The notes below the pieces were generated by a model. It made no database searches, had not been told where the DNA came from, and saw only the letters and a program-made list of their open reading frames with translations. From NCBI GenBank assembly GCA_964509195.1, contig CAZDWJ010000008.1:61190-125189 (forward strand): 64,000 nt of DNA, in the 5' to 3' direction. This DNA is from an uncultured Leptospira sp. Lineage in GTDB: Bacteria > Spirochaetota > UBA4802 > UB4802. Positions within the stretch are counted from its first letter, which is position 1, and every line of letters begins with the position of its first letter. Positions 5,553-62,090 of this stretch are shown piece after piece. The position numbers and the translations under genes were made by a program.

Positions 5553-6884
5553 TTACAAAGTCATCCGTGCTTTTTTGGATTGGCTATTCCAGAAAAGTTT
5601 GAATGTGCGCCTGGTTATAGATGTTGGTGCTGCTTTCAATTCTCTGTCCCAGCGTTCATGAAGTTCTAAAACTTTTTCCACACATTGCTTTGAAAAATCA
5701 AAATATTTTTGATTGCTGGATGATTTCTTTTTGTGTAATTCATTATCTTTTCTAATAAATTCATCTTCCAGTTCAAGTATAGTTGGGGCGATAGCTCTCA
5801 TAAAATAATCCCATTTGAAAATAGCCTGCCGGTGAATTCTTTCGTGCATCCACCAGTAGACATCAGGAGAATAGGTGCTTGTTTCATTAGCAGGTAGATA
5901 ATCTATTTCTTTTCCTATAAGGTAAAATGGCATGAAGACACTTGTACACGTACCTGAAGAGCCTGTTGCCCAGAAGACAGGAGTATCTTTGCGTAAATGA
6001 GCGACAAACGCAGCAACTGACTGGCTTGGCCGCGTTGGAGAAAGTGAGGCATGCATACATACGGTTCCCATATCAGTTTTATCGGGAGAAAGGTATTCAT
6101 GGTCACTTCCATGGTCACGCAAAAGTTGAAACATGGTTTGCGGCGTTATGGTACCAGAATAACGCAGTGCACAGCTTGTAGTTCGCGATTGCCTAACAGA
6201 ACATTTTGAAAAGTATGTGTAAAACCAGTCAGAGAAGCATTCTTTGAAGTTAAAGGGCTTGCCTTTTTTTAAGTATCCCTTTTTACGTGCATAATCTTCA
6301 ATGCCTTTAGATGAATAGTCAAATTCTTCACCTATTGTCAATCCATTGGAAATACTGCGAATGCCATCTACTTTTATAGCAACCCAGTGTTTGTTTGCAG
6401 TTTCAAGAACGTATGCTTCTTTTGTATCAGCAAAAATGAAAGAGTTATGATAATACAATGTATGTGCCATGCCGGCATTCCCACCCTGGCCATAATGCTG
6501 GATAAGTTCAGTAGAAAGCATTAATGCATCGTATGCTGTTTTACAACGCTCTAACGCAAGGCGCATAATATCCATTCCAAGCAATCCAGTTTTTTCATAG
6601 GGTTCTTTTGTGAATACTGCTTCATTGCCAATGGCAAGTCCGTATTCATTTGCTCCCATTTCGCAGCCCCACATCCAGAATGGAGTGGAGATTAATATCT
6701 CATGAGTTGTTTTAACCTGTGGTATGGAGATATAGGTGCACTGTACGGTGGTATCGTTGCCCCAGTTACGTTTAGCAATATATTTTAACAACTGGGCTTC
6801 GTTAGCTTCTCGGTCACTGTTTTTTGCCAGTATTACACTTCCATCAGCGGTTGCTTTACCAGTTGCAACAATGGTATCACACAT
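5553..6884 (-). CDS. C69 family dipeptidase (Ntn-type cysteine peptidase)
   Basis: 443 aa. It begins MCDTIVATGKATADGSVILAKNSDRE, with Cys2 as the nucleophile typical of peptidase C69. Its stop abuts the convergent MBL gene stop with zero spacer. Confidence 0.8.
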   Translation of the reverse strand: MCDTIVATGKATADGSVILAKNSDREANEAQLLKYIAKRNWGNDTTVQCTYISIPQVKTTHEILISTPFWMWGCEMGANEYGLAIGNEAVFTKEPYEKTGLLGMDIMRLALERCKTAYDALMLSTELIQHYGQGGNAGMAHTLYYHNSFIFADTKEAYVLETANKHWVAIKVDGIRSISNGLTIGEEFDYSSKGIEDYARKKGYLKKGKPFNFKECFSDWFYTYFSKCSVRQSRTTSCALRYSGTITPQTMFQLLRDHGSDHEYLSPDKTDMGTVCMHASLSPTRPSQSVAAFVAHLRKDTPVFWATGSSGTCTSVFMPFYLIGKEIDYLPANETSTYSPDVYWWMHERIHRQAIFKWDYFMRAIAPTILELEDEFIRKDNELHKKKSSSNQKYFDFSKQCVEKVLELHERWDRELKAAPTSITRRTFKLFWNSQSKKARMTL

Positions 6885-6981
6885 AGTATTCCCCTTATAG
6901 TAAATATATTTATTATTTTGATTTTATAACACTCTTGAATAAAAGTCAAAAGAATTTTTAGGTTAATGAGTGTATACAGGA

Positions 6982-7014
6982 ATATACCCCACCTTGTTTG
7001 GCAGTGGGGTATAT
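6982..7014 (-). terminator. hairpin downstream of the antiporter gene
   Basis: Perfect 11-bp stem ATATACCCCAC (6982..6992) / GTGGGGTATAT (7004..7014), 12 nt after the stop at 7026. The trailing U-tract on the minus strand is weak. Confidence 0.5.
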
Positions 7015-7025
7015 ACTATAATAAT

Positions 7026-8237
7026 TTAATGATTATTATTAACACCATTCAATCCATCTAATTGTGGAATTTCCTCATCAGCCATAGGTGCTTCAAGCAG
7101 GTGTTCTGGCAAAAAGAATGTGTTTGCGATAAGAGTAGGAACAACAGCACTGGTAATAACAGCTGCTATAAGGAAAGAATACTGTGCTTGATCAATTATA
7201 TTGTGAGTTAGTCCAAATAATGCTGCGATTGAACCAAATGTGAGCCCAGTTGACATAAGCAAGGTGTAGTACCAGCGCTCTTTTGTACTTTCTTTGAAAA
7301 TTCCTATTATTGGATAAAGCCCAAATATTTTTGTGATAACCTTTCCACCAAAAAGAATTATAAATGGTAAAGGTGCCAAAAAAATTGCCGGTAAACTTAC
7401 TAAAAAGCCAGCACGTAAGAAATAAATTGGTGTTAAAAATCCTATAGTCAATGTTCGTAATCGGCGCATGAAAAATTCATCTTTTGCAACACTTGAAGCA
7501 AGGACCATCCCTAATATATAGGCGGGAAGTACAGCCTCACTTCCTGACCATAGTGCTAATGCACCTAATGCAAATAACACAAACAAAATCCACTTGGTTC
7601 TGATAGCTGCGGTTCGGTGGCCATAGATTTTTGTTAGCCGCGCAGTTATTGCCGGCATTGCAAAGAAGGTAACTATCGACACTATTATAAAAATAATTGT
7701 TTTGTAGGTAAATGGAGAAAAGATGATGCCAAGTGCAATCACCGTCCCCAAATCATTGACAAAACAAGCTCCTAAGATCCCTTTACCGTACTTTGTTTTG
7801 TTAAATCCATATTCAATCATTACAGCATACACAACAGCCATTGATGTTGTTGACAGGGCTACACCAGCAAGCAAACTTGATTCAAAATTCCAGCCTAAAA
7901 GATAGTATGCAATTAATGCACTTCCAACAAAAGGTGACAGAAAGCCAATAAAGCCAACGACTGTTACTTCTTTGAATGTATCCCTGATAGTGTGGTAGTC
8001 AAGTTCAGCGCCCGCTAAAAACGTCAGCACCACAGCACCCGTGCTGGCAATAAATTTTATCCAGTCAGAATTTGCCTGCATAAAATCGGGATTAAAATAT
8101 TTTGCAAATAGTAAACCTGCTATCGCACCAACAGTTATTTCCATAAGTGCCATTGAAATTTTTAAACGGTTAGCCAATATAGTAGAAATTACAGCAAGGC
8201 CAAGCCATACTGATGCTACTACAAACATAGTAAGCAT
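7026..8237 (-). CDS. cation:proton antiporter (Na+/H+ exchanger, CPA superfamily)
   Basis: Polytopic hydrophobic ORF of about 400 aa with CPA-type layout. A GGAGGA SD lies 4 nt before the ATG at 8237. The ORF track extends it to 8249. It is preceded by a fluoride riboswitch. Confidence 0.8.
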   Translation of the reverse strand: MLTMFVVASVWLGLAVISTILANRLKISMALMEITVGAIAGLLFAKYFNPDFMQANSDWIKFIASTGAVVLTFLAGAELDYHTIRDTFKEVTVVGFIGFLSPFVGSALIAYYLLGWNFESSLLAGVALSTTSMAVVYAVMIEYGFNKTKYGKGILGACFVNDLGTVIALGIIFSPFTYKTIIFIIVSIVTFFAMPAITARLTKIYGHRTAAIRTKWILFVLFALGALALWSGSEAVLPAYILGMVLASSVAKDEFFMRRLRTLTIGFLTPIYFLRAGFLVSLPAIFLAPLPFIILFGGKVITKIFGLYPIIGIFKESTKERWYYTLLMSTGLTFGSIAALFGLTHNIIDQAQYSFLIAAVITSAVVPTLIANTFFLPEHLLEAPMADEEIPQLDGLNGVNNNH

Positions 8238-9977: not shown

Positions 9978-12134
9978 TTATAATACTTTTTTTCTTATTG
10001 CGAATTGTTTTTTTTCGTGTGATATCGATTGCAATGTGTCTATCTGAGACATTATTTTTGTTAACGTCTTTGTGAGTGCTTCAGTATTTTCATATACGGA
10101 ATTGGTTATTTCAACAAGTTGATTTATAGTAGATGTTATCTGGCTAAGTGTAATTTTTTCCTCCTGTGTTGCAGTTGTTATCTGTGAAGAACCCTGCAAC
10201 ACGACTACCATATTCTCTTCAATGCTTTTAGTCAATTGCTCCTGAGACATACAAAAATCAAGGATAGTGTCTATTGCGTGATTAACCATATACACAGAAC
10301 GCTCAACATCTTCATTTGAATACACCACTGTGCCCATAAGTATTGTCTGGGTTTCAATATCAGAAACTATCTCAGATAAAATTGCCTGAATACTTTTTGA
10401 TTGTTCTAATGATCTATCAGCTAATTTTCCAATTTCATCAGCAACTACAGCAAAGCCCCGGCCATACTCGCCTGCACGTGCGGCCTCAATCGAAGCATTG
10501 AGTGATAAAAGGTTTGTCTTTTCCGCAATATCATTAATGGTTTCAGTTATCTTAAGTATGGTATCAGAATAATTTTTTATTTTTTCTATACCTCTAAGTG
10601 CTTCTGAAAGATGTTCCTTTGTTACCGCAGTTTGGCCTTGGCTTTTGTAACTGAGCTTAACTGCCGTTTTGGCAGCATCGGTAATATGGTTGATGCCTTT
10701 GATTAATTCCATCAGAAGTTCCTTGTTTTTATTAAGCACTGTATCCTGATGCTGTGAGTTAGATGCAATAATATCTACTGTTGATGAAAATTCCTCCAGT
10801 GCTGCTGATGTCTGCTCTATACTAGATGTTTGGTCATGCATGCTGTGTTGCAGAACCTGTGCTGAACGTTCAACTTCCTTTGCAACCTGCTGTAATTCTG
10901 CAATTGACTGATTAATTTTTTGTAAGATTTGTATCAAATCTGCATTCTTTTTTTCAATGTATAGTTTTGAATCAAGGAGTTCCTCAGCAAGTGTTGCGGA
11001 TCGTTGAGACAGTATGGCACCTATACCTAAAATTAGTGCCGGATAACCTAAATTAAGCCAGAAAAAATTTGCATACAATACACCTGAAACAGCAAGTGAA
11101 TCATGTGCTACACATAGCATCATAAAAAGGTACGGGATTAACAGTGTTTTAGCTTCCTTTTGATTTTTTCGTATGCCTTTTATAATGAGTATTCCCCACA
11201 GTATCTGAACGGTAAGCCCAAAGGTTCCTATGACCTCAAACCTCCAGCCTGTAACAGGATCGTTTTCTGTTGCTGAAAGGCTTAGAATGATCATGCATGC
11301 AGCTGTAACTGTAATCACAATCCTGAGTGTTTTGTTAAAACTGGCTGTCACATTTTCAAAGAAGAAATATACAACGATAGCAATAACTGCAGTCAGGGCG
11401 TAGTATATTTTATCCTGTGTATTGAAATCAATAATCCAAAAATGCGGTAAGTAAAAATGCATTGCACTTACACACCACACTAGCGAAATAATTGCAAAAT
11501 ACAGTGTCAGCTTATCTTTGTTTTTCAAATAAAAATACAAAGCAATAATGCCTAAAATAAATGTGAGAAAACTTGTAGCAAGTGGTATATATTCGGCAAG
11601 TAAGGAACGGTAAAAATTTATTACTTTAGCATTAGACAGTGTGGTAATTAAAGGTACTCCATTATATTCAGCATTCTGGTTACTGAACACTCTTATGGCA
11701 ATAACATTTGGCTGGTTATAATTAATGATATGTGAAGGAATACTATAATACCTGAAACTGTTCCATTCAGAGTGGAAGTTTGGGTATTCGCTGCCAGCAG
11801 AGCCAATTTTGTAGCCATTGAAGAAAGTTTGTTCCACATCCCACACTTTGCCTAGTACAAATGCAATGTCATGCTTTTTAAATGATTCTGGTATTACTAC
11901 TGATTTCCTGAGCCATAGATACTGTTTTGTTTTTTTAGGCGATAGTTTCCCGGGAAGGGTAATTGGTTGCAGTGATGAATCATCAAATCCAGGATTTACA
12001 ATTGAAGAATTGTCGCCAGAATATATCTTCCAGTCAGAGTGAATGTCAATAACTGGAACGCCTGTATCACAGCCAGCAGTAATAAGCAAAAATATGAATA
12101 TGGTTATATACTGAAGTAAGATAGATACCTTCAT
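9978..12134 (-). CDS. methyl-accepting chemotaxis protein with 7TMR-DISM sensor module
   Basis: The C-terminal MCP signalling hairpin is [40 protein letters not shown]. The central region has seven hydrophobic helices, and the N-terminal extracytoplasmic domain is 7TMR-DISMED2-like. The likely start is the ATG at 12134 (MKVSILL..., lipobox-like ITAGC, AGGAA SD). The track extends the ORF to 12227. Confidence 0.8.
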
Positions 12135-13299: not shown

Positions 13300-15156
13300 A
13301 TGAAAAGATCCCTGCCCTTGTTGCTAAGTATTATACTTTCCTGTACCTCCGTTCAGAATGTTCAAAAGGGTAGTATAACTAAACCTGTTTATAAAGAAAC
13401 ATCATTTGAGTTGTACAGTAGAGCGTTATTGCTAAAAAATGAAAAGAATTACTCAGAGGCTATTTCCCTTTTTGAAGAAGCAAGCAAAGAAGGCAGGGAG
13501 TTAGATGCCATTTATTATCAGATTGCTGAATGTTATTATTATCTGTATGATTATGAAAAGGCGATAGATTATGCAAATAAATCAATAGCTATAAATGAAA
13601 ACTGGGATAAGCCTTACCTGTTGCAGTATTCAGTGTATATGAACCTGAATCAAATTGATGAAGGTACTTTAGTACTTGAAAAACTGTTACAGAAAAGACC
13701 TGAGTTGTACAGAGTTCGATTTAATCTGGCTACCGTCTATTATTCACAACTGAAACAGAATATTAAAGCCCGGTATCATTTTTTAAAAATTATCGAACAG
13801 AGTGAATTTGAATCAATTGAATCCTACTACAAAGAGCAATCATATTACTATTTGGGGCATATATATTACAGCTTTGGTGAATATAAAAAATCATATCACT
13901 TCTTTTCAAAGTCATATAATGAAAACCCCGAAAACCATTCCATGGTATATATACTTGGCCTTTTAAATCTTGAGAAAGGGGATATAACTCAGGCAACCAG
14001 CTTACTATCACAATATCTGGATCGCTATCCTAATGATCTCAAAGCCATATTGCATCTTGGCAGGATATATTATATCTATGAAGATATGAAAGCCTTGCAA
14101 GTGTTACGAAAGGCCATCCATCACAGGAGCTCTGAAGGGTTGCTGGCGCGAATGATGTATCTGGAACTTTTGCACAAAGATGATGAAGCTATGGAAATTG
14201 CTCAGAAATTAAAACGCATGAACAGCTCTCTAGATATGCCATATATTACAATAGCGCGTATTGCAATGAGGAAGCAGGACACTGCTACTGCTGCATCAAA
14301 TTTTTATACTGCCGGAGTATTGTTATATCAGAAAAAAGATAATAATGCAGCCATACCCATGTTTATCAAGGCACTGGGGATGGACCAAAATATACAGGAG
14401 GCAAATCTCTACTTAGGTCAAATATATGAAGATTTAAACCAGCTTAATACAGCCATCTATTATTATACTAAAGCAAAAACATCTAAAAATGAAAAAGACA
14501 TTTTACTGAGAGTAGGATATCTGTATGCACTGTTGAAGGATTATACTAAAGCATTTGAATATATGAATGCAGCGCAGGCAATGGATACAAAATATCCTGA
14601 TGCATATTTTTTCAAAGGTCTGGTATATTTAAAGAAAAATAGTTATAGTGAAGCTGAAGATATGTTGCGCAAAGCGGTTAATTTAAAAAAGGATGAAATG
14701 TATTATTTTTACTTAGCATCAGTTCTTGATAAACAGAAAAGAGTGCAGGATACTATCGCCATACTCCAGGAAGCCTGCGATAATGAGCTAAAAAGTGCCC
14801 GTATATGCAACTACCTTGGCTATTTATATGCAGATAATGGCATAAAATTAGATGAATCATATACGCTTATCAGTAGGGCCCTGGAAAGCGAACCAACCAA
14901 CGGTGCATATCTTGATTCGCTGGGGTGGGTATATTATAAAATGGGGAAATATCATGATGCGCTGCCATTATTACTTGAAGCTGCACAGGAATTGGAATTG
15001 GAAGGATACCCTGATGCAGTAGTGTATGAACATATAGGTGATGCCTACAATGCACTGCAATTACAGGATAAAGCTGTTGAGTACTGGAATAAATCATACA
15101 CTCTTGACCCAAAACCTGAAGTGCAAAGAAAGATACATACTCAGAAAGGGAAGTAA
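13300..15156 (+). CDS. tetratricopeptide repeat lipoprotein
   Basis: 618 aa. It has a signal peptide with lipobox LSIILSCTS and many TPR-like A/Y/L-patterned repeats. Confidence 0.75.
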   Translation: MKRSLPLLLSIILSCTSVQNVQKGSITKPVYKETSFELYSRALLLKNEKNYSEAISLFEEASKEGRELDAIYYQIAECYYYLYDYEKAIDYANKSIAINENWDKPYLLQYSVYMNLNQIDEGTLVLEKLLQKRPELYRVRFNLATVYYSQLKQNIKARYHFLKIIEQSEFESIESYYKEQSYYYLGHIYYSFGEYKKSYHFFSKSYNENPENHSMVYILGLLNLEKGDITQATSLLSQYLDRYPNDLKAILHLGRIYYIYEDMKALQVLRKAIHHRSSEGLLARMMYLELLHKDDEAMEIAQKLKRMNSSLDMPYITIARIAMRKQDTATAASNFYTAGVLLYQKKDNNAAIPMFIKALGMDQNIQEANLYLGQIYEDLNQLNTAIYYYTKAKTSKNEKDILLRVGYLYALLKDYTKAFEYMNAAQAMDTKYPDAYFFKGLVYLKKNSYSEAEDMLRKAVNLKKDEMYYFYLASVLDKQKRVQDTIAILQEACDNELKSARICNYLGYLYADNGIKLDESYTLISRALESEPTNGAYLDSLGWVYYKMGKYHDALPLLLEAAQELELEGYPDAVVYEHIGDAYNALQLQDKAVEYWNKSYTLDPKPEVQRKIHTQKGK

Positions 15157-15955: not shown

Positions 15956-17181
15956 TACTCAGATATAATATTTTGATATATAGTTGCCATTTGCATAGCG
16001 GCATTGTCCCAGTTGAAAAGTGTTTTTACACGCTGAATACCCTTGTGCGATAGCTCCTGTAGCAATGTTCTGTTGTGTAGTAGCCTGTCGATGGCATTAG
16101 CCAGTGCCACCTCATCACGGGTAGGCACAACAACTCCAGCATCGCCAACCACTTCCCTCAACGCACCACCGTCACTGGCAATAACTGGTGTACCGCATGC
16201 CATAGCCTCGGCAGCAGGAAAGCCAAACCCCTCGTACACAGACGGCACAATGGCTATTGCAGCTTCATTATAGTGATGCACCAGCTCATCAGTTGAGGCG
16301 GCGCCTACAAATTCTACTTTAGTGCGTACACCTAATGTATCAACAAGCTTCTGGGTGATGCGTCGGTGTGGAGCACCACCATCAATCACTGTCAATGTGG
16401 CCTTGCTTTTAATAAGGGTCAGAGCTTTTAAAAGATATACAAATCCTTTTTTGCCATCTTCAACATTTCCAACAAACAAAAGCTTGTCTGGCTTTTTCTT
16501 AACATGTGGAAGTTTTCTAAAAATTGAGGTATCTAACCCATTATATACCACTGACTGTTTGTGAGGAGGAACGCCAAAATCTTTTGTAATTCTGTTTTTT
16601 GAATCTTCCGAAACTGTAATGATATGGTTAAGCCTTTTTGAAACAATTTGCTGCATTAAAATAGGATAAAACATGACGCCTTTTATTCTGTTAGTAAACG
16701 ATGATGCACGCTCAAGCACATTTTCTAGGTCAATAGTTAATGGATGATGGATAGTGGCTATTACAGGAATACCTAAGGCTTTCATAAAAAGAAGGCCATA
16801 GCCAATACACTGATTGTCATGAATGATGTCAAACTGGAGTTTTTGGTGGAGCTTTCGCAGCATAAAAAAAGCACGATAGCTGAAACCGCTTATTTCAGAG
16901 AACGCACCAAACCGTGAGTGGATATATTCGTATGCGTTAATAGGATTAAAAATATCAAATGGCTTATCCTGTGTGATGAATTCAAAACCTTTTTTGATAT
17001 AGTATTGATTATTTTCTATATAGTGAATGGTAACATTTTCCATTTTGTGTGGATAGGGAGGGCCCACAACTGCATGCACCTGATGCCCCTGACGGGCAAG
17101 AGCTTCCGCTACATATTTAAGGTAAATACCCTGTCCTCCGCAAAAAGGGTTTGCCCTGTAACACAAAAGGCATATCCTCAT
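15946..17181 (-). CDS. glycosyltransferase family 4
   Basis: 411 aa. It has a GT-B fold with C-terminal EGFGFPAAEAMACGTPVIASDGGALREVV. Confidence 0.85.
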   Translation of the reverse strand: MRICLLCYRANPFCGGQGIYLKYVAEALARQGHQVHAVVGPPYPHKMENVTIHYIENNQYYIKKGFEFITQDKPFDIFNPINAYEYIHSRFGAFSEISGFSYRAFFMLRKLHQKLQFDIIHDNQCIGYGLLFMKALGIPVIATIHHPLTIDLENVLERASSFTNRIKGVMFYPILMQQIVSKRLNHIITVSEDSKNRITKDFGVPPHKQSVVYNGLDTSIFRKLPHVKKKPDKLLFVGNVEDGKKGFVYLLKALTLIKSKATLTVIDGGAPHRRITQKLVDTLGVRTKVEFVGAASTDELVHHYNEAAIAIVPSVYEGFGFPAAEAMACGTPVIASDGGALREVVGDAGVVVPTRDEVALANAIDRLLHNRTLLQELSHKGIQRVKTLFNWDNAAMQMATIYQNIISEYYR

Positions 17182-19212: not shown

Positions 19213-20190
19213 TCACTTCTTAGCTAGATCGCTAAGAAATACAGTAATAGCTTTTTCTGCTTTGCCCCAGTCAGATTTGACATATTTTGATAACAGGACA
19301 TGATCCCCATTTTCAATTGCAACTTTTCTGCTTAAAGAATGGGGATTTCCATTGTTAAATGTATCGTAAGCCTTCAGCATTGCCTCAACCTGGGCAGAAC
19401 CGTCTTTGTGTTTGTCATCTTTATAATAATAGAGTAGGAGTACAGGACATGAAACTTTTTTGTAAATATCATCATTAGCAATTAGATCTCCAAGATCTAG
19501 CAATGAATGAAGTGATGCCCAGTAATTTTTTTGATACCAGTACATAGTCCAATTATCTTTAGGATCATCATACGGATCATGTCGTTCACGGTAGGTAGTA
19601 AATAGTAACACGGTTTTAAAAAAAGGCCTGAAAAACAGGGCATTCCCTACTGGATTTGCAAAGCGGTAGAATGGTGATACCAGTACAATAGCATCAGGTA
19701 TATCTGGATGCTCTGCGGCAATATAGGTTGCGATGCCTCCCCCCATACTTGTGCCAATGATTACCAGCTTATCTCCCAAAAGTTTTGTCATCTGTGCAGC
19801 TTCTATAGCAGTGTCAAGAAGCTGGTAGTATTCTGTGTTTTTATGATCATCCATGGTGGTACCATGGCCGGGCAATCGCAAATAGTAAGTATTATATTTT
19901 AATTTTTTGGCGATAGTATCTATCACAAATTGGCCCTCACCACGGGAAGCACCATAACCGTGAATGTAGAGCATTGCTATTTTTGTTTTGGGAGCAAACT
20001 TTAAAAGTTTTTCCTCATTGTTAGGTCGAACTCCTTTTTCTTTACTTTCTTTGAGTTTTAATGTGTAATATTCATCAAATGTAGCAGGAAGTTTTTTTTG
20101 ATTGTATGTATAGGTTATATGTGATTGATACGCATCAACTGCAATGAGTGCAGCAATTACAATAGCAAGTCCTATTAATATTTTTTTCAT
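19213..20190 (-). CDS. alpha/beta hydrolase (lipase/esterase-like), secreted or membrane-anchored
   Basis: 325 aa. It has an N-terminal hydrophobic segment, the nucleophile elbow GTSMGG (GxSxG), and a C-terminal GDH. Confidence 0.75.
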   Translation of the reverse strand: MKKILIGLAIVIAALIAVDAYQSHITYTYNQKKLPATFDEYYTLKLKESKEKGVRPNNEEKLLKFAPKTKIAMLYIHGYGASRGEGQFVIDTIAKKLKYNTYYLRLPGHGTTMDDHKNTEYYQLLDTAIEAAQMTKLLGDKLVIIGTSMGGGIATYIAAEHPDIPDAIVLVSPFYRFANPVGNALFFRPFFKTVLLFTTYRERHDPYDDPKDNWTMYWYQKNYWASLHSLLDLGDLIANDDIYKKVSCPVLLLYYYKDDKHKDGSAQVEAMLKAYDTFNNGNPHSLSRKVAIENGDHVLLSKYVKSDWGKAEKAITVFLSDLAKK

Positions 20191-47922: not shown

Positions 47923-48789
47923 ATGGCATCATTACAGGCAAAAGCGAAAGCAATTGAAAAAACATCATTCATAATAATCAGTTCTCTGTCATATATCATA
48001 ATAGCGTTCCTGTTGTTTGTGCTGGGGTACATATTTTTACAGGGTTATCGAGCATTATCATGGGAATTTTTAACTGCATTCCCAAAAAACGAAATGCGTG
48101 AGGGGGGAATCTACCCGGCAATATTAGGAACATTCTACCTTATGGTAGGCTCTTCAGTTATATCGGTTCCTATTGGTATCATGACAGCAATATATTTGAC
48201 TGAGTATGTGGAAAATATTAAGGTGCTCCAATTCATACGGTTGGGTATCAATAATCTAGCTGGTGTACCATCGGTAGTATTTGGCCTTTTTGGATTAAGT
48301 GTTTTTGTTATATTCCTGGATTTTGGTTCTTCTATTGTTGCTGGATCACTAACATTGGGAATTCTCAACCTTCCGCTCGTCATACGTTCAACCGAGGAAG
48401 CACTGCTAACAGTGCCAATTTCATATCGTGAAGCTTCGTTATCGTTAGGTGCAACCAAATGGCAGACAATTTATAAGATAGTTCTGCCAACAGCTCTACC
48501 GGGTATACTGACGGGCATTATGCTGTCACTGGGAAGAGCAGCAGGGGAGACAGCTCCGATAATGTTTACCTGCGCTACATTTTACACACCGCATATCCCT
48601 GACTCCCTGTTCAGTGAAGTGATGGCGCTGCCCTATCACATTTATGTACTGGCTACAGCAGGAACTCACATTGAAGCAACACGGCATATACAATATGGAA
48701 CAGCGATAGTACTTATTGCACTGGTGTTGGGATTAAATTTTACCGGCATGGTATTGCGGTACAAATACAGAAAGAAATTTAAACAGTAG
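47923..48789 (+). CDS. pstA: phosphate ABC transporter permease PstA
   Basis: 288 aa. It reads RSTEEALLTVPISYREASLSLGATKWQTIYKIVLP and lies immediately downstream of pstC. Confidence 0.9.
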   Translation: MASLQAKAKAIEKTSFIIISSLSYIIIAFLLFVLGYIFLQGYRALSWEFLTAFPKNEMREGGIYPAILGTFYLMVGSSVISVPIGIMTAIYLTEYVENIKVLQFIRLGINNLAGVPSVVFGLFGLSVFVIFLDFGSSIVAGSLTLGILNLPLVIRSTEEALLTVPISYREASLSLGATKWQTIYKIVLPTALPGILTGIMLSLGRAAGETAPIMFTCATFYTPHIPDSLFSEVMALPYHIYVLATAGTHIEATRHIQYGTAIVLIALVLGLNFTGMVLRYKYRKKFKQ

Positions 48790-49508: not shown

Positions 49509-51242
49509 TTACTTATGTGGTATTATAATTGTAAATGTAGAACCATTTGATGAAGAAGTTACTCCAATTGACCAACCTAATATAAGTGCTGCATGTTTCA
49601 CAATTGAAAGGCCAAGTCCTGTACCGCCAGTTTCGCGTGAACGACTTTTATCCACGCGGTAGAAACGCTCAAAGATCCTATTAATTTCATCATGAGGGAT
49701 TCCTATGCCAGTATCAGTGATATATATTGTGAGCAATTGAGGGTTTGAAGTAGCTGTGATAGTGATTGAACCGTGCTCATTGTTGTAATTAATGGCATTG
49801 TCAATTATATTGAAGAATATCTCTTCAGCTAAAAATGCATTCCCCAAAATATTTTCAGGCAGGGATTCAATGTCCATAACTATCGCCAGGTTCTTTTTAT
49901 GAATTTTTGGCATTAGCAGATCAACACACTGTGAAATGACTTTTTTAAGATTAACAGATTCGCTGGTGATGTAGGACGATGTTTCTAATTGATTGAGTTT
50001 AAGCATATCGTTGATGATAGCATTCTGGCGTTCAACATTGGCCAGGGCACTTTCAATAAAATTCTCAGCTGTTTTCTGGTCGCAAATATTGTCTTTAATT
50101 GTTTCTAAATATCCGCGGATGATACTGATAGGTGTTTTTAATTCATGTGAAAGATTGCCCACAAGATCCGATTTGAGTTGCTGTATGCGCTTTTGTTCCG
50201 TGACATCATGCATCAGTAGCAGGGTGCCCGTAGCAGGTTCAGCAAACGGATAGATAAATATCTGAAAATGATTCCCAGCTATTGTTTCTTCAAACGATAT
50301 CCTCTGCTTCTGAGAAAAGGCAACATGTATTTTTGCGTTCAACTCGCTGTGGCGGATGACCGTGAAATAATATTTGTTGGTAATGCTTTCAGGGTACTCA
50401 AAGCAGTGAGCAAATGCTTTATTGTGAATAGTAATTTTTTTATCTTCATCGATTAGTGCAATGGGGTCATGGATGCTTTCAATAATCATGAAAAGTTTGT
50501 TCTTTTCATTGGTAAGTTCGTTGATGCGCTGCTGTATGTTATCTGCCAGCTGATTCATGGCTTTTTGCAAATATCCCATTTCATCATCTTTGTAATTGAG
50601 AATACGTGCACCAAGATCACCATTGAAAAACCTGTGTATGAACTGCAATGAATCCTTGATTGGTTTTGTGAAAGCAGTGGCAAACAGTGCAGTAACTATA
50701 ACACTTATCACCAATACAACAATACCAACAGCAAGAATATTTTTAGTGATGGATTCAATCAATGCGTTAATAGTATTCAATGATTTAGCTGTGCGGATAT
50801 AGTAATAATTGTAATATGAGGCAACATATAGCATATCGGCATTCATTGTAGTACTGTATCGTACAGACATACCGGTGCCCTTTTTTCGTGCTTCCAGGAT
50901 TTCAGGGCGGTATAAGTGGTTTTCCATTAAATCAGGATTGGCATCTGAATCAAAAATGACGGTACCATCATTCTGTATGATAGTAATGCGCAAAGAACTT
51001 TTCTGAGCAACATTTTTTAACGCAGTTGCTATCTCATTGTTAAAAAACATTTTGCTCACTGGTTTGTGAAATGAAAGGAGGTAGGTGTTTATATATTCAA
51101 TATTTTGCTGCAATTCAACTTTTAAAAATATTCTGAATTCATTCTGTATATGGCGTTGAATGTATAATAAAAGAAGCGAAATAAAAAGGATTAATGCTAT
51201 AGAATAAACAATGATTAATTTTGATTTAAGGCTCTGTATCAT
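49509..51242 (-). CDS. phoR: phosphate regulon sensor histidine kinase
   Basis: 577 aa. It has two TM segments, HAMP and PAS domains, the H-box LSHELKTPISII, and N/G boxes IIDNAINYN, DTGIGIP and GGTGLGLSIVK. It follows phoB. Confidence 0.85.
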   Translation of the reverse strand: MIQSLKSKLIIVYSIALILFISLLLLYIQRHIQNEFRIFLKVELQQNIEYINTYLLSFHKPVSKMFFNNEIATALKNVAQKSSLRITIIQNDGTVIFDSDANPDLMENHLYRPEILEARKKGTGMSVRYSTTMNADMLYVASYYNYYYIRTAKSLNTINALIESITKNILAVGIVVLVISVIVTALFATAFTKPIKDSLQFIHRFFNGDLGARILNYKDDEMGYLQKAMNQLADNIQQRINELTNEKNKLFMIIESIHDPIALIDEDKKITIHNKAFAHCFEYPESITNKYYFTVIRHSELNAKIHVAFSQKQRISFEETIAGNHFQIFIYPFAEPATGTLLLMHDVTEQKRIQQLKSDLVGNLSHELKTPISIIRGYLETIKDNICDQKTAENFIESALANVERQNAIINDMLKLNQLETSSYITSESVNLKKVISQCVDLLMPKIHKKNLAIVMDIESLPENILGNAFLAEEIFFNIIDNAINYNNEHGSITITATSNPQLLTIYITDTGIGIPHDEINRIFERFYRVDKSRSRETGGTGLGLSIVKHAALILGWSIGVTSSSNGSTFTIIIPHK

Positions 51243-51249: not shown

Positions 51250-51930
51250 TTACCCTTTTAACCCGTAGCCAACGCCAGAATACGTCTTGATGGCTTCCTT
51301 ATAATGCCCTAACTTTTTCCTTAAATTCATAATATGCACGTCAACCGTTCTGTCAATTACATATACATTATCTCCGCGAATACTGTCGATGATGTTATCA
51401 CGGGAAAATATTTTGCCAGGGTATTGCATGAAGAGTTTAAGAATAAGAAATTCGGTTTTTGTTAAATCAACGGGTTCTTTGTCGATAGTTACTGAAAATT
51501 TTTCTGGATACAGTGCAATGCCTTTATATGTTAGGACTTCTTTCGGTGTTTCTTCTTTGCCATGGACACGCCGCAAGATTGCTTTCACACGGGCAATGAG
51601 TTCGTGTATGCTAAATGGTTTGGTGATGTAGTCATCAGCTCCCAATTCAAGCCCTAACACTTTATCAAGCTCTGCTGATTTTGCTGACAGGAATAAAATG
51701 GGGATTTCTTTTAAATTGCTGGATGCCCGGATCTGCTTACACAGATCCAATCCATCCATACCGCTCATCATGATGTCAAGAATTAAAAGATCAGGTTTGG
51801 CGATAGCTAACTGTTTTAAAACCTCTTCAGCTGAAGCAAATGTAAAAACATCATACCCATTTTTTTGAAGATTGACTTTCAGGATCTCGCGAATATCCTT
51901 TTCATCATCAACAACATATATTTTTGGCAT
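51250..51930 (-). CDS. phoB: OmpR-family phosphate regulon response regulator
   Basis: 226 aa. It has a receiver domain (DLLILDIMMSGMDG) and a winged-helix domain (LTKTEFLILKLF...GVGYGL). Confidence 0.85.
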   Translation of the reverse strand: MPKIYVVDDEKDIREILKVNLQKNGYDVFTFASAEEVLKQLAIAKPDLLILDIMMSGMDGLDLCKQIRASSNLKEIPILFLSAKSAELDKVLGLELGADDYITKPFSIHELIARVKAILRRVHGKEETPKEVLTYKGIALYPEKFSVTIDKEPVDLTKTEFLILKLFMQYPGKIFSRDNIIDSIRGDNVYVIDRTVDVHIMNLRKKLGHYKEAIKTYSGVGYGLKG

Positions 51931-53641: not shown

Positions 53642-54472
53642 ATGAAGGTCAAGAGTTTTTCAGTTTTTTTAATGATAATGGCGTTAATAAGCTCATTATC
53701 AATTGGTTTTTCACAGACTAAAGGATCAAAAGTAGTTATTAAAGGTTCAACAACAGTATTGCCGATAGCTCAGAAAGCACTGGAAGCATTTTATGAAAAG
53801 ACAAAGATTGTCATAAGTCTTTCGGGCACCGGTTCAGGCGATGGGATTAAATCACTTATTGATGGCAGCTGTGACATCGCAAATTCTTCAAGAGAAATGA
53901 AACCTGAAGAATTAAGTCTGGCAAAATCTAAGGGTGAAAAGATTAAAGAAGTTGCTATCGCGTATGATATGATAGTCCCAGTCGTGCATCCTTCAAATCC
54001 AGTAAAAAATCTTTCCATGGCTCAGCTGAAAGCTATTTATGAAGGCGCTATCACCAACTGGAGCCAGGTAGGTGGCAATAATGAAAGGATAGTAGTAATA
54101 TCTCGCGACTCAAGTTCCGGTACATTTGAAGTATGGGAAACCAAAGTTATGAAGAAAGCGGAGGTCCGTAAGGATGCGTTATTACAGGCATCTAATGGTG
54201 CAATAGTATCAGTTGTTTCAAAGAATAAAAGAGCCATTGGATATATAGGTTTTGGATATCTTGATGACAGGGTAAAAGCATTAACAGTTAATAATGTTGA
54301 ACCAACAATCCCTAATGGCAAATCAGGTGTATATCCTATAGCCCGTAAATTGTATATGTATGTTAATGAAGTGAAAATCAAACCAGAAGCCCAGCAATTT
54401 ATAGATTTTATCCTTTCAAAAGAAGGACAGCAGATTGTGAAAGCAGCAGGTTTTATACCACTCACTGATTAA
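53642..54472 (+). CDS. pstS: phosphate ABC transporter substrate-binding protein (copy 1)
   Basis: 276 aa. It has a signal peptide without a Cys lipobox and reads IKGSTTVLPIAQK...SGTGSGDGIK...SSREM...ISRDSSSGT. AGGAGG SD. Confidence 0.9.
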   Translation: MKVKSFSVFLMIMALISSLSIGFSQTKGSKVVIKGSTTVLPIAQKALEAFYEKTKIVISLSGTGSGDGIKSLIDGSCDIANSSREMKPEELSLAKSKGEKIKEVAIAYDMIVPVVHPSNPVKNLSMAQLKAIYEGAITNWSQVGGNNERIVVISRDSSSGTFEVWETKVMKKAEVRKDALLQASNGAIVSVVSKNKRAIGYIGFGYLDDRVKALTVNNVEPTIPNGKSGVYPIARKLYMYVNEVKIKPEAQQFIDFILSKEGQQIVKAAGFIPLTD

Positions 54473-54624: not shown

Positions 54625-55452
54625 ATGAAAATAAAAAGTATCATATTTTTTATATTGATATTTGTTATCGCAATAGTACTGAGCATGTCGTGTTCAAAAG
54701 AAGCTAAGGAGAAAATTGTTATAAAAGGGTCAACTACGGTGTTGCCCATTACCCAAAAAGCTGCGGAAGCTTTTTATGAAAAAAATAAAATTGTCATTTC
54801 TCTTTCAGGTACTGGCTCAGGTGACGGGATTAAGTCTTTAATTAATGGTAGCTGTGATATTGCCAATTCTTCACGGGAGATGCATCCAGAAGAATTAGAC
54901 CTGGCAAAACGTAAAGGTGAAGTAATAAAAGAAGTGGCAATTGCGTTTGATATGATAGTTCCTATTGTGCATCCTTCAAACCCTGTTTCAAATCTCACGT
55001 TGCATCAGTTAAAAGCAATATATGAAGGGTCAGTCAAAAACTGGAAGGATGTTGGTGGAAAAGATGAAGCTATCGTTGTCATTTCACGCGATTCAAGTTC
55101 GGGCACATTTGAAGTGTGGGAATCTAAAGTAATGAAACATGGTGAAGTGCGTAAAGACGCACTACTGCAGGCTTCTAACGGAGCTATCGTGCAGACTGTA
55201 TCACAAAACCTTAAAGCAATAGGTTATGTGGGTTACGGATATCTGAATGACAGAGTGAAGCCATTATTTGTAAATAATGTTGAACCAACAATTGACAATG
55301 GAAAAAGTGGCAAATATCCTATAGCTCGCAAACTCTATATGTATGTGAATGAAGTAAAAATAAAGCCAGCCGCACAAGCATTCATAGATTTCATGCTATC
55401 TGATGAAGGTCAGGCGATAGTGAAAGAGGCGGGCTTTATTCCGGTTAAATAG
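54625..55452 (+). CDS. pstS: phosphate ABC transporter substrate-binding lipoprotein (copy 2)
   Basis: 275 aa. It is about four-fifths identical to copy 1 by eye, but has the lipobox LSMSC. Confidence 0.9.
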   Translation: MKIKSIIFFILIFVIAIVLSMSCSKEAKEKIVIKGSTTVLPITQKAAEAFYEKNKIVISLSGTGSGDGIKSLINGSCDIANSSREMHPEELDLAKRKGEVIKEVAIAFDMIVPIVHPSNPVSNLTLHQLKAIYEGSVKNWKDVGGKDEAIVVISRDSSSGTFEVWESKVMKHGEVRKDALLQASNGAIVQTVSQNLKAIGYVGYGYLNDRVKPLFVNNVEPTIDNGKSGKYPIARKLYMYVNEVKIKPAAQAFIDFMLSDEGQAIVKEAGFIPVK

Positions 55453-57656: not shown

Positions 57657-57756
57657 GGCGATAGTTACTGCATGAGGGATGCGAAGGGTAAAAAAATCAC
57701 ATTAACAATTAAAAAAATTAGTTGATTAAAAAAATACATAACACTGTAATTTTTTC

Positions 57757-59518: not shown

Positions 59519-59529
59519 TGAAAACATCG

Positions 59530-59573: not shown

Positions 59574-60014
59574 GTATCCTATTGCTTCCAGATCAGCTAA
59601 ATCCTGATATCTTCCTAATGCCTTTTTATTTTTAATAAACTGTTCCTTCCCAATAAAGAGAACTTGTACATCTCCATAATTTCCTAATAGTGCATTATTA
59701 TAAACTTCATCCCAGCTGACACCGGTTAGAGAGGTGATTAAATCAATTCTTAAAGGTGGGTAGCCCAATTGTATCACTGTATCAGGCTCCATGATATCTT
59801 TTTTTGTTATATTAAAGGAGGAAAAGCCAAAATCTTGCAACGCTTTGACAATTTTTTCTGCATTGCCTTCATCGCAACCTATAAATATATCAAGATCGCC
59901 TGTATATCTGGGATTTCCATGAAATGCCAGAGCATACGCTCCAACTATAACATACTGTGCATTATGATCGTTTAATAATTGTAACAACTCTTTGTAATCT
60001 TGATGTATTTCCAT
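59547..60014 (-). CDS. minimal nucleotidyltransferase-fold protein (TA/defence-type NTase, family uncertain)
   Basis: About 155 aa from the ATG at 60014. It reads MEIHQDYKELLQLLNDHNAQYVIVGAYALAFHGNPRYTGDLDIFI (a G-x-x-A...R-x-T-x-D-x-D NTase signature). Confidence 0.55.
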   Translation of the reverse strand: MEIHQDYKELLQLLNDHNAQYVIVGAYALAFHGNPRYTGDLDIFIGCDEGNAEKIVKALQDFGFSSFNITKKDIMEPDTVIQLGYPPLRIDLITSLTGVSWDEVYNNALLGNYGDVQVLFIGKEQFIKNKKALGRYQDLADLEAIGYKNGDADNT

Positions 60015-60150
60015 AGATTTGCCTGCGTAATATTTCAACAGCACTTATTCGTTCTTCAGGAGTTTTTGTAATCCACCACTTATAATTGTCAGTGGGGGAA
60101 CAATCTTTTATATTTTTCTTTACAGCATGAGTTTTTTTTAAGTGTTCCAT
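59962..60150 (-). CDS. small protein partner of the NTase (putative antitoxin-like)
   Basis: 62 aa: MEHLKKTHAVKK...TPEERISAVEILRRQIYGNTSRLQRVVTIIKRS. Its last 53 nt overlap the NTase gene out of frame. Confidence 0.4.
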   Translation of the reverse strand: MEHLKKTHAVKKNIKDCSPTDNYKWWITKTPEERISAVEILRRQIYGNTSRLQRVVTIIKRS

Positions 60151-60359
60151 ATTTGCATACTTATAGTATTAAATATTAAGATTAAAAATATACATTAATG
60201 GACTTTAAGTCAATAAGAATTTATATAGTCCATGTAAGGATTTTACCCTATTAACCAGTGACTGTTCACTGATAACGTAATAATGAATTTGCACTTGACA
60301 CGGTAGTATCATTATACCATTTATCATAACCATTACGCAAAAGAAAGAGGAAACAGACT

Positions 60360-62090
60360 ATGAGAATGTCACGCTATCTTATTCCAACGCTCAAAGAAGA
60401 TCCTGCAGATGCAGTGATAACCAGCCACAAGCTTATGATACGTGCAGGGCTTATCCGGAAAGAATCAGCTGGTATGTATATCTATCTGCCATCAGGATTG
60501 CGTGTTTTGCAAAAGATTATTAATATAGTGCGCGAAGAAATGAATAAAGCTGGTGCGTTAGAGTTCTTAATGCCGGAGCTTACCAATGCAGATCTTTGGA
60601 AAGAGTCGGGGCGCTGGCATACCATGGGCCCTGAAATGATACGCATAAAGGACCGCAATGGACTTGAATATGCCCTGGCACCAACGCATGAAGAAGCATT
60701 CACCAATGCAATCCGCATGATTGTAACCTCTTACAGGGATTTACCTGTCAATGCATATCAAATCAACACTAAATTTCGTGATGAGATTCGCCCGCGATTT
60801 GGTGTTATGCGCAGCAAAGAATTCATAATGAAGGATGCGTATTCGTTTGATATAGATGAAGCCGGACTTGAGCGCTCATACCAGATAATGCGGCAGACGT
60901 ACCGAAATATCTTCAAACGGTGCGGATTGGAGACAATTCCGGTAGAAGCTGATACTGGTTCAATGGGGGGAAGCGATTCGGAAGAATTCATGGTGGCATC
61001 TGAGGTTGGGGAAGAGATTTTGCTTTTGTGTGATGCATGTGGCTATAAGTCCAATCAGGAACGGGCCACCTGTCAGTATGAACTATCGCCCAATAAAGAA
61101 AATGCCGAAGCACTTGAAATAGTAGATACCCCTGATGTGCGCACAATTGATGAGCTGGTGCAATTTTTTGGATGCAGTGCACATGCATTTTTAAAAAGCC
61201 TTATTTACGTTGCCGACGGTATGCCGGTGATGGCTGTGGTGCCAGGTGATCGCGAAATAAACGAGGTGAAACTAAAAAATGCGTTGGGTGCAGTTGAATT
61301 AGAGCTTGCTCCTGACACGGTTGTGGAAGAGGTGACAGGAGCGCCTGTTGGTTTTGCGGGGCCAATTTTAGCAAAAGGTAAACAGGTGCGCATCATCTTT
61401 GATACTCAGGTAAAATATATTGGCAACGGCATTACAGGAGCTAATGAAAAAGACAAACATTATAAAGGAGTCAATCCCGGAAGAGATTTTGCCATTACGC
61501 AAGAGGCTGACATTACTCTGGTGGTTGCCGGGGATAAATGTCCACACTGCGGCTATCCTCTCAAAGAAAAAAAGGGGATTGAGGTGGGGCACATTTTTAA
61601 GTTAGGCTATAAGTACACAAAGTCAATGAATGTAACAGTGCTTGACCAGAATGGAAAGGCTATTACCCCCATTATGGGCTGTTATGGGATTGGCGTTAAC
61701 CGCACTATGGCAGCGGTAATTGAGCAGCATCATGATGAGCGAGGGATTATCTGGCCAATGAGCGTTGCACCATTTCACGTGCATCTGGTGAGTCTGGCTA
61801 AAAATGAAGCTGAAGAACAATTAGCTGACCAGGTGTATATGCTGCTTTCAACGCACGGGATAGAGATTCTCTATGATGATCGCAAAGCAAGCCCCGGCTT
61901 TAAGTTTGGCGATGCTGATCTTATTGGCATACCAGTACGCCTCACATTGGGGAAAGCATTTTTTGGCGATAGTTCCTCAATTGAGGTCAAACTGCGCAAC
62001 AAAGATGAAAAACAAATCGTTGCTAAAGACGATATTGTGTCGTATTGCAAAAAGCTAATTGCCGACCAATTATCCACCCTGAATTCATAG
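60360..62090 (+). CDS. proS: proline--tRNA ligase (bacterial type with INS editing domain)
   Basis: 576 aa. It begins MSRYLIPTLKEDPADAVITSHKLMIRAGLIRK and has class II motifs (FRDEIRPRFGVMRSKEF; GCYGIGVNR). Confidence 0.95.
   Translation: MRMSRYLIPTLKEDPADAVITSHKLMIRAGLIRKESAGMYIYLPSGLRVLQKIINIVREEMNKAGALEFLMPELTNADLWKESGRWHTMGPEMIRIKDRNGLEYALAPTHEEAFTNAIRMIVTSYRDLPVNAYQINTKFRDEIRPRFGVMRSKEFIMKDAYSFDIDEAGLERSYQIMRQTYRNIFKRCGLETIPVEADTGSMGGSDSEEFMVASEVGEEILLLCDACGYKSNQERATCQYELSPNKENAEALEIVDTPDVRTIDELVQFFGCSAHAFLKSLIYVADGMPVMAVVPGDREINEVKLKNALGAVELELAPDTVVEEVTGAPVGFAGPILAKGKQVRIIFDTQVKYIGNGITGANEKDKHYKGVNPGRDFAITQEADITLVVAGDKCPHCGYPLKEKKGIEVGHIFKLGYKYTKSMNVTVLDQNGKAITPIMGCYGIGVNRTMAAVIEQHHDERGIIWPMSVAPFHVHLVSLAKNEAEEQLADQVYMLLSTHGIEILYDDRKASPGFKFGDADLIGIPVRLTLGKAFFGDSSSIEVKLRNKDEKQIVAKDDIVSYCKKLIADQLSTLNS

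Follow-up and report, generated by a model that had tools for sequence, protein, structure and literature searches.

We analyzed a 64-kb stretch of DNA from an uncultured Leptospira sp. (assembly GCA_964509195.1, contig CAZDWJ010000008.1, positions 61,190 to 125,189; hereafter, the window) and found that a short, asymmetric word, the octamer GGCGATAG, is strongly over-represented in it on both strands. The window contains 23 exact copies, 14 on the plus strand and 9 on the minus strand (0.36 per kb), whereas 100 shuffles preserving the dinucleotide composition yielded 0.73 copies on average (maximum 4) and Markov models of order 1–3 predict 0.5–1.4. The heptamer core of the word, GCGATAG, occurs 37 times, 21 on the plus strand and 16 on the minus strand (0.58 per kb), compared with a mean of 3.3 (maximum 9) in the same shuffles. 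The excess is about 10- to 45-fold, its size being set by the choice of the null model, and the over-representation is confirmed. The interpretation that we tentatively favor is that GGCGATAG is an uptake-sequence-like self-recognition word, which would be kept up by biased DNA uptake and recombination.

The word had been noticed by eye in an initial annotation of this DNA, and our recount reproduced all 9 minus-strand positions of the octamer and all 11 positions listed for the core alone, to which three more (3679, 8120 and 16047) were added. On the plus strand, 12 of the 13 listed positions are exact; the copy placed at 44569 starts at 44559, and a fourteenth copy, at 11938, had been overlooked. 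For the flanked forms, the count of four TTTTGGCGATAG stands, whereas GCGATAGTT, reported 11 times, occurs 12 times. The annotation also knew of no described motif with this sequence; consistently, a full-text search for GGCGATAG and CTATCGCC returned, among the matches listed, papers on unrelated subjects, as judged by title and abstract.

Such an excess could in principle stem from chance, base composition or an artefact of amino-acid or codon usage. Two observations point that way: Ala-Ile and Ile-Ala, which the word can encode, are common dipeptides in the window (152 and 153 occurrences, respectively), and a ranking by maximal-order Markov models flags CGATAG alone, everything beyond this hexamer being absorbed. 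The latter approach was dropped as a guide to motif length because sub-words "explain" the longer words that contain them. In the dinucleotide shuffles, the observed counts were reached in 0 of 100 cases. When synonymous codons were shuffled within genes and also across all genes (n = 500), so that each protein was preserved along with the codon usage as a whole, coding copies of GGCGATAG averaged 1.6 and never exceeded 7, versus 19 observed, and those of GCGATAG averaged 7.4–7.9, versus 30 observed; this null model is conservative inasmuch as the motif is itself part of the codon usage. DNA outside long open reading frames (ORFs), about 17% of the window, harbors 4 of the 23 octamers and 7 of the 37 cores, so that the density is equal in coding and non-coding DNA. 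Together with the lack of an excess in relatives encoding similar proteins (see below), the shuffles and the non-coding density rule out this explanation, to which we assign a negligible probability.

The 30 core copies located inside genes (81%) are spread over several reading frames, as the initial annotation had claimed, with seven additional copies in intergenic DNA. Twelve are read as GCG-ATA-G (Ala-Ile), eight as (N)CT-ATC-GC(N) (Ile-Ala), five as GGC/CGC-GAT-AG(N) (Gly/Arg-Asp-Ser) and five as CTA-TCG-C(N) (Leu-Ser-Pro/His/Gln). Five of the six frames are possible, one containing TAG, and four are used, the TAG frame and the frame encoding Tyr-Arg being empty. The word is composed of rare codons: Leu-Ser is encoded as CTA-TCG 10 times, versus 1.1 expected from codon usage, and each of the 12 GCG-ATA pairs is followed by a codon starting with G. 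With 17 sense and 13 antisense copies within genes, there is no transcription bias. The codon shuffles, the equal density in coding and non-coding DNA, the rare CTA-TCG pair and the sites that differ between relatives by synonymous changes only (see below) all support the claim that the signal is one at the DNA level and no dipeptide or codon artefact.

The octamer is the strict head of a longer asymmetric consensus of about 14–17 nt, GGCGATAGTTACTG(CAT), with the layout (T-rich) GGCGATAG-TTACTG-(CAT). The 14-mer GGCGATAGTTACTG is found in the window three times exactly, three times with one mismatch, 5 times with two and 21 times with three, compared with 0, 0.02, 0.44 and 4.2 in third-order Markov simulations. 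TTACTG follows 5 of the 57 occurrences of CGATAG in the window versus 1 of the 574 other occurrences of ATAG, and the bases coming next after CGATAG read Y, W, M, C, T. A logo of 95 pooled core copies consists of a T-rich shoulder, G, G, GCGATAG, T, T, A, C, T, G and an A-rich shoulder.

The exact 17-mer GGCGATAGTTACTGCAT is present at six independent, unrelated genomic places, and the intergenic copies at 23185 and 57657 have 19 identical bases (AGGGCGATAGTTACTGCAT) within a 31-nt stretch of 84% identity. These matches, and the strength of the consensus, which is typical of elements that multiply by copying (PMC1626085), might suggest a very small mobile or copy-paste element, of which the copies would be remnants or ends and which would resemble a miniature inverted-repeat transposable element (MITE), a repetitive extragenic palindrome (REP) or the end of an insertion sequence. 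We consider this origin very unlikely: in every alignment of copies, similarity ends at ~17–19 nt; the window contains no longer repeat family or mobile element; 30 of the 37 cores lie inside intact genes, in four different frames; and alignable coding sites differ from their counterparts in relatives by substitutions, with no insertions. A REP- or MITE-type repeat, with a unit of at least 20 nt that is usually palindromic and intergenic, fails on both length and location, and no RNA family in Rfam overlaps any copy of the word in the window.

The window carries ordinary chromosomal genes, including glyS, proS, glgX, a pst-phoU-phoBR cluster, a methyl-accepting chemotaxis protein (MCP) gene and genes for metabolic enzymes and transporters. 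By ProS identity, its closest relatives are two metagenome-assembled genomes (MAGs), JARYLT01, assigned to "Spirochaetota" (91%; L001), and one labelled Leptospira biflexa (85%; L047), followed at 64–73% by genomes mostly labelled Leptospirales or Leptospiraceae. In 26 kb from the two closest MAGs, we observed four copies of GGCGATAG versus 0.3 expected. By comparison, 50 relatives at 64–73% ProS identity (726 kb) yielded 13 copies versus 19.6 expected, and 28 more distant genomes (447 kb) yielded 10 versus 12.9. A scan of metagenomes with the 17-mer GGCGATAGTTACTGCAT produced 44 matches that fell into two clean classes. Fourteen loci, with 34–42% G+C, come from several related species and correspond to five genomic places independent of each other; the orthologue of the window site at 23185 is among these places. 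The six non-redundant representatives of these loci contain 19 further octamers in 65 kb, versus 0.9 expected, whereas the remaining 30 loci contain four, versus 5.0 expected. The enriched loci encode unrelated housekeeping proteins, namely, EF-G (fusA), FeoB, an nrfA-like cytochrome c552 and sensor kinases. Viral contigs selected by the 14-mer, which served as a background control (1 Mb), contained 29 extra octamers versus 23 expected, and scans of viral contigs with the 14-mer and both 17-mers yielded single chance matches and no motif-rich phage. The excess at unrelated loci, combined with its absence from the relatives at 64–73% identity, indicates that the enrichment is genome-wide and limited to a narrow, genus-level lineage of uncultured Leptospirales-like spirochaetes; it is not confined to the window. 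Besides L001 and L047, the enriched genomes are those to which L206, L212, L223, L242 and L231 belong. Contigs of the lineage include Ga0101944_10000988, Ga0067045_1027841, Ga0209204_1000880 and ERZ795060 NODE-8367, and the lineage is present in the samples Ga0067045, Ga0101944, Ga0208196-8 and Ga0209204.

Within this lineage, the word varies between species and its sites turn over. The sister MAGs L001 and L047 use the dialect GCGATAGTAACTG, with TAACTG in place of the TTACTG of the window, and the extended form GCGATAGTAACTGTAAA occurs in them twice, in two different genes. In proS, the site at 61083 is kept in both MAGs, and that at 61965 is kept in L047 and replaced by a synonymous one-mismatch form, GGAGATAG, in L001. 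A relative at ~75% nucleotide identity (L216/L231), orthologous to positions 20–33 kb of the window, has 2 of the 11 window sites and seven sites of its own; the 17-mer at 23185 is kept at the orthologous place (L215/L216/L231). Among the coding sites that are not shared, several differ by nothing but substitutions, including synonymous ones (GCG-ATA/GCA-ATT; ATC-GCA/ATT-GCA), and several of the sites not shared fall where the alignment is poor or gapped. At ~82% identity, 6 of 10 sites are in common, versus 24% for any heptamer, although two of these were the seed of the search, so that the remaining 4 of 8 are only suggestive of positional conservation. One-mismatch forms of the core that arise by transition are 1.5- to 2.4-fold over-represented (GTGATAG, 33 versus 13.5 expected; GCAATAG, 44 versus 29.1; GCGGTAG, 11 versus 4.7), whereas transversions at the central positions do not exceed expectation. 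These comparisons suggest that copies are continually created by point mutation and decay through transitions, with the density of the word being maintained but not its position.

When 50 relatives were scanned for hyper-abundant octamers, several that lack GGCGATAG proved to have moderately over-represented asymmetric octamers of their own (L006, L022, L008, L050 and L042, with ~20 kb available for each): ACAGGATA occurs 10 times in L006 and AAGAGTAT 10 times in L022, and ACAGCATC, ATATCCCC and CCGGTAAA occur 8, 12 and 9 times, respectively, among L008, L050 and L042. This may hint that lineage-specific words are common in the order, ~20 kb per genome being too little to judge. In the Spirochaetaceae MAG JAFQDD010000010 (L061), CGCACCCG and GGTGCGAC occur 22–23 times in 21.8 kb (0.05–0.1 expected); these probably belong to a CRISPR array or tandem repeat unrelated to the main word.

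The word shows no replication polarity and is evenly spaced. G+C content in the window is 35–42%, and GC skew is positive in 14 of 16 sub-windows of 4 kb each. The G-rich, presumably leading, strand of the window carries 14 of the 23 octamers and 21 of the 37 cores, and in 11 pooled loci, each oriented by its own GC skew, the G-rich strand has 49 cores and the C-rich one 46. Taking GC skew as the mark of the leading strand, and for a small sample (the window and ~90 kb of related loci), a Chi-like skew of 75% is rejected both in the window (21 of 37; P = 0.012) and in the pooled loci (49 of 95; P = 7e-7). Gaps between consecutive cores are more even than random (coefficient of variation (CV) 0.67, P = 0.007), the largest being 3863 nt versus 7.1 kb expected (P = 0.0014); of control hexamers that are about as abundant, only 1.3% have a CV no higher than 0.75. 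Pairs of copies no more than 150 nt apart show no clear excess (20 versus ~16 expected, by our own estimate), yet one is striking in form: at 14235–14277 of contig Ga0101944_10004409 (L206), CAGTAACTATCGCC, a 12-nt loop and GGCGATAGTTACTG make a perfect inverted pair with a folding energy of -25.3 kcal/mol (z = -5.7); T9 comes next, and the result is a terminator-like hairpin between two minus-strand ORFs, directly upstream of fusA. Looser pairs in the (-,+) arrangement occur in intergenic DNA of the window (33385/33459) and in L212, L223 and L242.

These properties invite comparison with the uptake signal sequences (USS) of Pasteurellaceae and the DNA uptake sequences (DUS) of Neisseriaceae. 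As described by Redfield and colleagues (PMC1626085), such words occur about once per kb, with no orientation bias and with spacing more regular than random; they include some close pairs in opposite orientations and many coding copies, are present in related species, and combine an unusually strong consensus with AT-rich flanks and an origin by point mutation without insertion. Other studies describe a few critical core bases inside a longer uptake motif (PMC3458573), species dialects (PMC3630211) and inverted DUS pairs that act as terminators (PMC2397512). Like USS and DUS, the word found here is over-represented and asymmetric, lacks orientation bias, is regularly spaced, has a strong core with weaker flanks, originates by point mutation and is common to related species, with dialects.

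The parallel with USS (AAGTGCGGT or ACAAGCGGT, with AT-rich flanks) extends to a short strict core within a longer, weaker consensus, T/A-rich flanks, a majority of copies in genes (65% for USS (PMC1626085), ~81% here), some close inverted pairs, subclade-specific variants and avoidance of frames with stop codons. The two differ in that their sequences are unrelated, the phylum here is Spirochaetota as opposed to Gammaproteobacteria, the density is about half and neither non-coding DNA nor terminators are preferred; the word described here is, moreover, known from sequence alone. Neisserial DUS ((AT)GCCGTCTGAA and dialects of it, which the minor pilin ComP reads) are likewise words, of 10–12 nt, with a required core, dialects at the species or genus level (TTACTG versus TAACTG here), inverted pairs that form terminator-like hairpins (L206 here) and a genome-wide excess on both strands. 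However, DUS are in the majority intergenic, often as inverted repeats in terminators, and their positions are highly conserved (PMC2397512), whereas the word studied here is mostly coding, forms few pairs and turns over in position between species. The initial annotation had judged the word closer to uptake sequences than to Chi or KOPS (FtsK-orienting polar sequences), and the unbiased strands, even spacing, strict core with an extended consensus, dialect, point-mutation origin and inverted-pair hairpin bear this out, as a resemblance only.

What we observed directly is the statistics of the word, its anatomy, its distribution among lineages and its turnover in evolution, and we infer an uptake or transformation machine as its reader. 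In the mechanism that we propose, the word would be a functional counterpart of DUS and USS: a pathway of DNA uptake and recombination would include an asymmetric component that binds DNA and reads the word, and would preferentially take up or recombine fragments bearing it. Copies newly arisen by point mutation would spread via homologous replacement (molecular drive), while old copies would decay by transitions. This would keep the density at about one core for every 1.7 kb, irrespective of strand, both between genes and in whichever reading frames permit it, and would favor the presence of at least one copy in every fragment of a few kb. Occasional inverted pairs might double as hairpins or terminators. 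A bolder and somewhat more speculative form of this proposal holds that the word represents a third, independently evolved DNA uptake sequence system, the first outside Proteobacteria, and that the lineage may be naturally transformable, preferring its own DNA through the ~14-nt GGCGATAGTTACTG, with species-level dialects.

Several points weigh against the uptake interpretation. The window encodes no competence, pilus, recombination, DNA-modification (methyltransferase) or Vsr gene, only housekeeping and metabolic ones, and we know of no report of natural competence in Leptospirales. Sequence-preferring natural transformation is known in two proteobacterial families only, a 2025 survey still speaking of uptake sequences in just Neisseriaceae and Pasteurellaceae, and two papers that we consulted on spirochaetes mention only ComEC-domain proteins and type II secretion. 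The density of the word is below the ~1 per kb of classical DUS and USS. These prefer non-coding DNA, with about half of the copies in predicted terminators (PMC1626085; 2025 survey); the lack of any such preference here is the only departure from DUS and USS among the properties that can be examined in sequence. Positional conservation is weak at ~75% identity, whereas that of neisserial DUS is described as high (PMC2397512). The excess of inverted over tandem pairs within 150 nt (13 versus 7) is not significant, hairpin pairs are few, and the sample behind the strand comparison is small.

The main rival invokes an unknown, asymmetric protein that binds chromosomal DNA, such as a nucleoid-organizing, segregation, replication-restart or self-marking defense factor, with the copies serving as an array of its sites; selection would maintain one of these every few kb, with no link to uptake. 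We regard this as unlikely, even though the evidence of this analysis fits it and uptake alike: the even spacing, the strict core with relaxed flanks, the lineage specificity, the equal density in coding and non-coding DNA and the turnover of sites at a sustained density all fit selection on density rather than on position. To our knowledge, no nucleoid or segregation protein recognizes a strict asymmetric 8- to 14-mer present in hundreds to thousands of copies without polarity; KOPS are polar, and matS, parS and the Noc- and SlmA-binding sites (NBS and SBS) are palindromic and few. Furthermore, families of intracellular sites usually have a relaxed consensus, not many perfect copies (PMC1626085). 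Alternatively, the word could be a by-product of sequence-specific biased repair or gene conversion that corrects near-cognate mismatches towards it, akin to very-short-patch repair and to what has been proposed for the cyanobacterial palindrome HIP1. The origin of sites by point, often synonymous, substitutions, the blindness of the effect to strand and context and its lineage specificity, as would be expected of a repair or methyltransferase specificity, are compatible with this improbable scenario. However, near-cognates that should be consumed are not depleted, the C-to-T form GTGATAG and the G-to-A form GCAATAG being over-represented, and depletion of one-mismatch neighbors, the very-short-patch signature, was found neither in the window nor in the pooled loci. 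Nor does biased repair predict even spacing, and known very-short-patch effects are modest, far below the excess observed here. Like the word, HIP1 (GCGATCGC) is a highly iterated octamer of coding and non-coding DNA with a driving force that is disputed or unknown, and the two have the letters GCGAT in common; however, HIP1 is a palindrome with no copy in the window, and a palindrome of this type is excluded because GGCGATAG is not its own reverse complement.

A role as a Chi-like recombination hotspot for RecBCD or AddAB appears quite improbable, too. Spirochaetes encode RecBCD-type enzymes, the word resembles Chi (GCTGGTGG and Chi-like words) as well as KOPS and the related architecture-imparting sequences (AIMS) in being an octamer over-represented across core-type genes, and even spacing would suit a signal that stops degradation. 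Chi, however, is polarised on the leading strand and occurs once per 5 kb in E. coli (bioRxiv 10.1101/2020.08.13.249359), whereas the word is unpolarised and several times denser. Neither Chi nor KOPS/AIMS has a 14–17-nt extended consensus, hairpin pairs are not a Chi feature, and the very strong strand skew, switching at the terminus (dif), that is expected of KOPS/AIMS is contradicted by the pooled ratio of 49:46. Another candidate was the ops element (GGCGGTAGCGTG), which is read by RfaH-type NusG paralogues and works in the leaders of a few operons, on the non-template strand. GGCGATAG is one base off the head of ops, GGCGGTAG, with TG a few bases later, but its location in the middle of genes, in both orientations and at hundreds of times the frequency of ops, rules out an RfaH recruitment site.

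Coordinates of all core copies in the window are given in Table 1, together with those of a second over-represented word.

Table 1. Positions of the main word, its core and the second word (window coordinates unless a related locus is named)
Feature	Position	Strand	Context
GGCGATAG	5787..5794	+	antisense in gene 5553-6884(-); GCT-ATC-GCC (Ala-Ile-Ala)
GGCGATAG	11938..11945	+	antisense in MCP gene 9978-12227(-); CTA-TCG-CC (Leu-Ser-Pro)
GGCGATAG	13560..13567	+	sense in tetratricopeptide repeat (TPR) gene 13300-15156(+); GCG-ATA-G (Ala-Ile)
GGCGATAG	14753..14760	-	antisense in gene 13300-15156(+); ACT-ATC-GCC
GGCGATAG, preceded by TTTTTT	19909..19916	+	antisense in hydrolase gene 19213-20190(-)
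GGCGATAG	21615..21622	-	sense in thiamine diphosphate (ThDP)-enzyme gene 21496-23151(-); Ala-Ile
full 17-mer GGCGATAGTTACTGCAT	23185..23201	+	intergenic, 34 nt upstream of start of gene 21496-23151(-)
GGCGATAG (TTTTGGCGATAGTTAC)	25629..25636	-	intergenic, between thiolase and aconitase-family genes
GGCGATAG	26386..26393	+	sense in gene 25736-26995(+); Ala-Ile as GCG-ATA, GCA-ATT in relative
GGCGATAG, preceded by TTTTTT	27002..27009	-	25-nt gap between genes 25736-26995 and 27021-27527
GGCGATAG	30298..30305	-	sense in cyclic nucleotide (cNMP)-binding gene 29594-30811(-); Ala-Ile; GCTATAAC instead in relative
GGCGATAG	37014..37021	+	sense in uxuA-like gene 36111-37121(+); GGC-GAT-AGC (Gly-Asp-Ser)
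GGCGATAG	40235..40242	+	sense in gene 37854-40700(+); Ala-Ile
GGCGATAG	42861..42868	+	sense in gene 42561-43262(+); Gly-Asp-Ser; second word GCTCTGACCCC directly before
exact 14-mer GGCGATAGTTACTG	43027..43040	-	antisense in gene 42561-43262(+); ACT-ATC-GCC
GGCGATAG	44559..44566	+	sense in Nramp gene 43509-44858(+); Gly-Asp-Ser
GGCGATAG	45313..45320	-	antisense in PfkB gene 44869-45891(+); CTA-TCG-CC
GGCGATAG	49880..49887	-	sense in phoR-like gene 49509-51242(-); Ala-Ile
GGCGATAG	51799..51806	+	antisense in response-regulator gene 51250-51930(-); GCT-ATC-GCC
GGCGATAG	55413..55420	+	sense in PstS-like gene 54625-55452(+); Ala-Ile
full 17-mer GGCGATAGTTACTGCAT	57657..57673	+	intergenic, from first base after stop codon of gene 56553-57656(+); absent at orthologous place in L001
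GGCGATAG	61083..61090	-	antisense in proS 60360-62090(+); CTA-TCG-CC
GGCGATAG, preceded by TTTTTT	61965..61972	+	sense in proS; Gly-Asp-Ser
core only, (C)GCGATAG	3679..3685	+	sense in glyS 2805-4883(+)
core only, (T)GCGATAG	8120..8126	-	sense in Na/H exchanger gene 7026-8249(-)
core only, (T)GCGATAG	16047..16053	+	antisense in glycosyltransferase gene 15946-17181(-)
core only	29580..29586	-	sense in gene 27529-29616(-); synonymous CAATAG in relative
core only, (A)GCGATAG	31132..31138	+	intergenic
core only	33385..33391	-	intergenic; (-,+) inverted pair with 33459, heptamer starts 74 nt apart
AGCGATAGTTACTG, one mismatch to 14-mer	33458..33471	+	intergenic
core only	37908..37914	+	sense in gene 37854-40700(+)
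core only	38536..38542	-	antisense in gene 37854-40700(+)
core only	40333..40339	-	antisense in gene 37854-40700(+); (-,+) pair with 40386
core only	40386..40392	+	sense in gene 37854-40700(+)
core only	45019..45025	-	antisense in gene 44869-45891(+)
core only	48703..48709	+	sense in permease gene 47923-48789(+)
core only	53955..53961	-	antisense in PstS-like gene 53642-54472(+)
second word	42850-42860	+	
second word	43012-43022	+	
second word	63196-63206	+	
second word	16417	-	
second word	39760	-	
second word	41551	-	
second word	13002, 19263, 19399, 19461		L001
second word	12457, 12989		L223
second word	6727, 7259		L242

The second word, GCTCTGACCC(C) / GGGGTCAGAGC (also written as GCTCTGACCCC), is unrelated to the main word and over-represented in the same genomes. 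As a 10-mer, it has six copies in the window versus 0.03 expected and 14 in the pooled loci of the lineage versus 0.07; as an 11-mer, it has 11 copies versus 0.01 expected. It is found in coding DNA, in both orientations, and twice directly adjoins the main word in gene 42561-43262, both copies encoding K-A-L-T-P. GCTCTGACCCC may be a separate genome-maintenance signal.

Beside the 17-mer at 23185, the intergenic segment 23202-23250 (CATTAAACCACTGTATAAAAAAAGCCAT...) is well conserved in comparison with positions 8513-8560 of L215, the genes of the two being only ~75% identical, and it may serve the ThDP-enzyme gene as a regulatory leader. A fluoride riboswitch (Rfam RF01734, 43.8 bits versus a gathering score of 34) is located on the minus strand at 8298-8358, immediately upstream of the Na+/H+ exchanger-family gene 7026-8249(-). 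The 92-nt tRNA-Tyr that ARAGORN predicts at 36794-36885 (+) is most likely a false positive, as it lies inside the ORF 36111-37121, matched by Pfam to UxuA (mannonate dehydratase), and has no Rfam tRNA match. A 57-nt imperfect inverted repeat (75% complementary) has its arms at 1090-1146 and 24221-24277, both intergenic and upstream of genes, 23 kb apart. The PstS-like phosphate-binding genes 53642-54472 and 54625-55452 are tandem paralogues, with 300 nt at 75% identity, and adjoin the pstB-phoU-phoB-phoR cluster, which is on the opposite strand.

Whatever reads it, the word provides a sharp marker with which the lineage can be binned and tracked in metagenomes, given that the 17-mer search cleanly separated contigs of the lineage from noise. 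If it is no uptake signal, it would be an unpolarised, genome-wide word for protein binding of a kind not yet described, and likewise new. Because sequence-biased uptake is documented in only two proteobacterial families, the debate on why such words exist, through molecular drive or through selection for "safe sex", rests on two examples. If the uptake interpretation is correct, a third, unrelated example from another phylum would show the phenomenon to be convergent and more widespread, and would provide an independent test of drive models, with its fast turnover, equal density in coding and non-coding DNA and even spacing. It would also predict that this spirochaete lineage, a relative of Leptospira, is naturally competent, and hence offer a way into its genetics.

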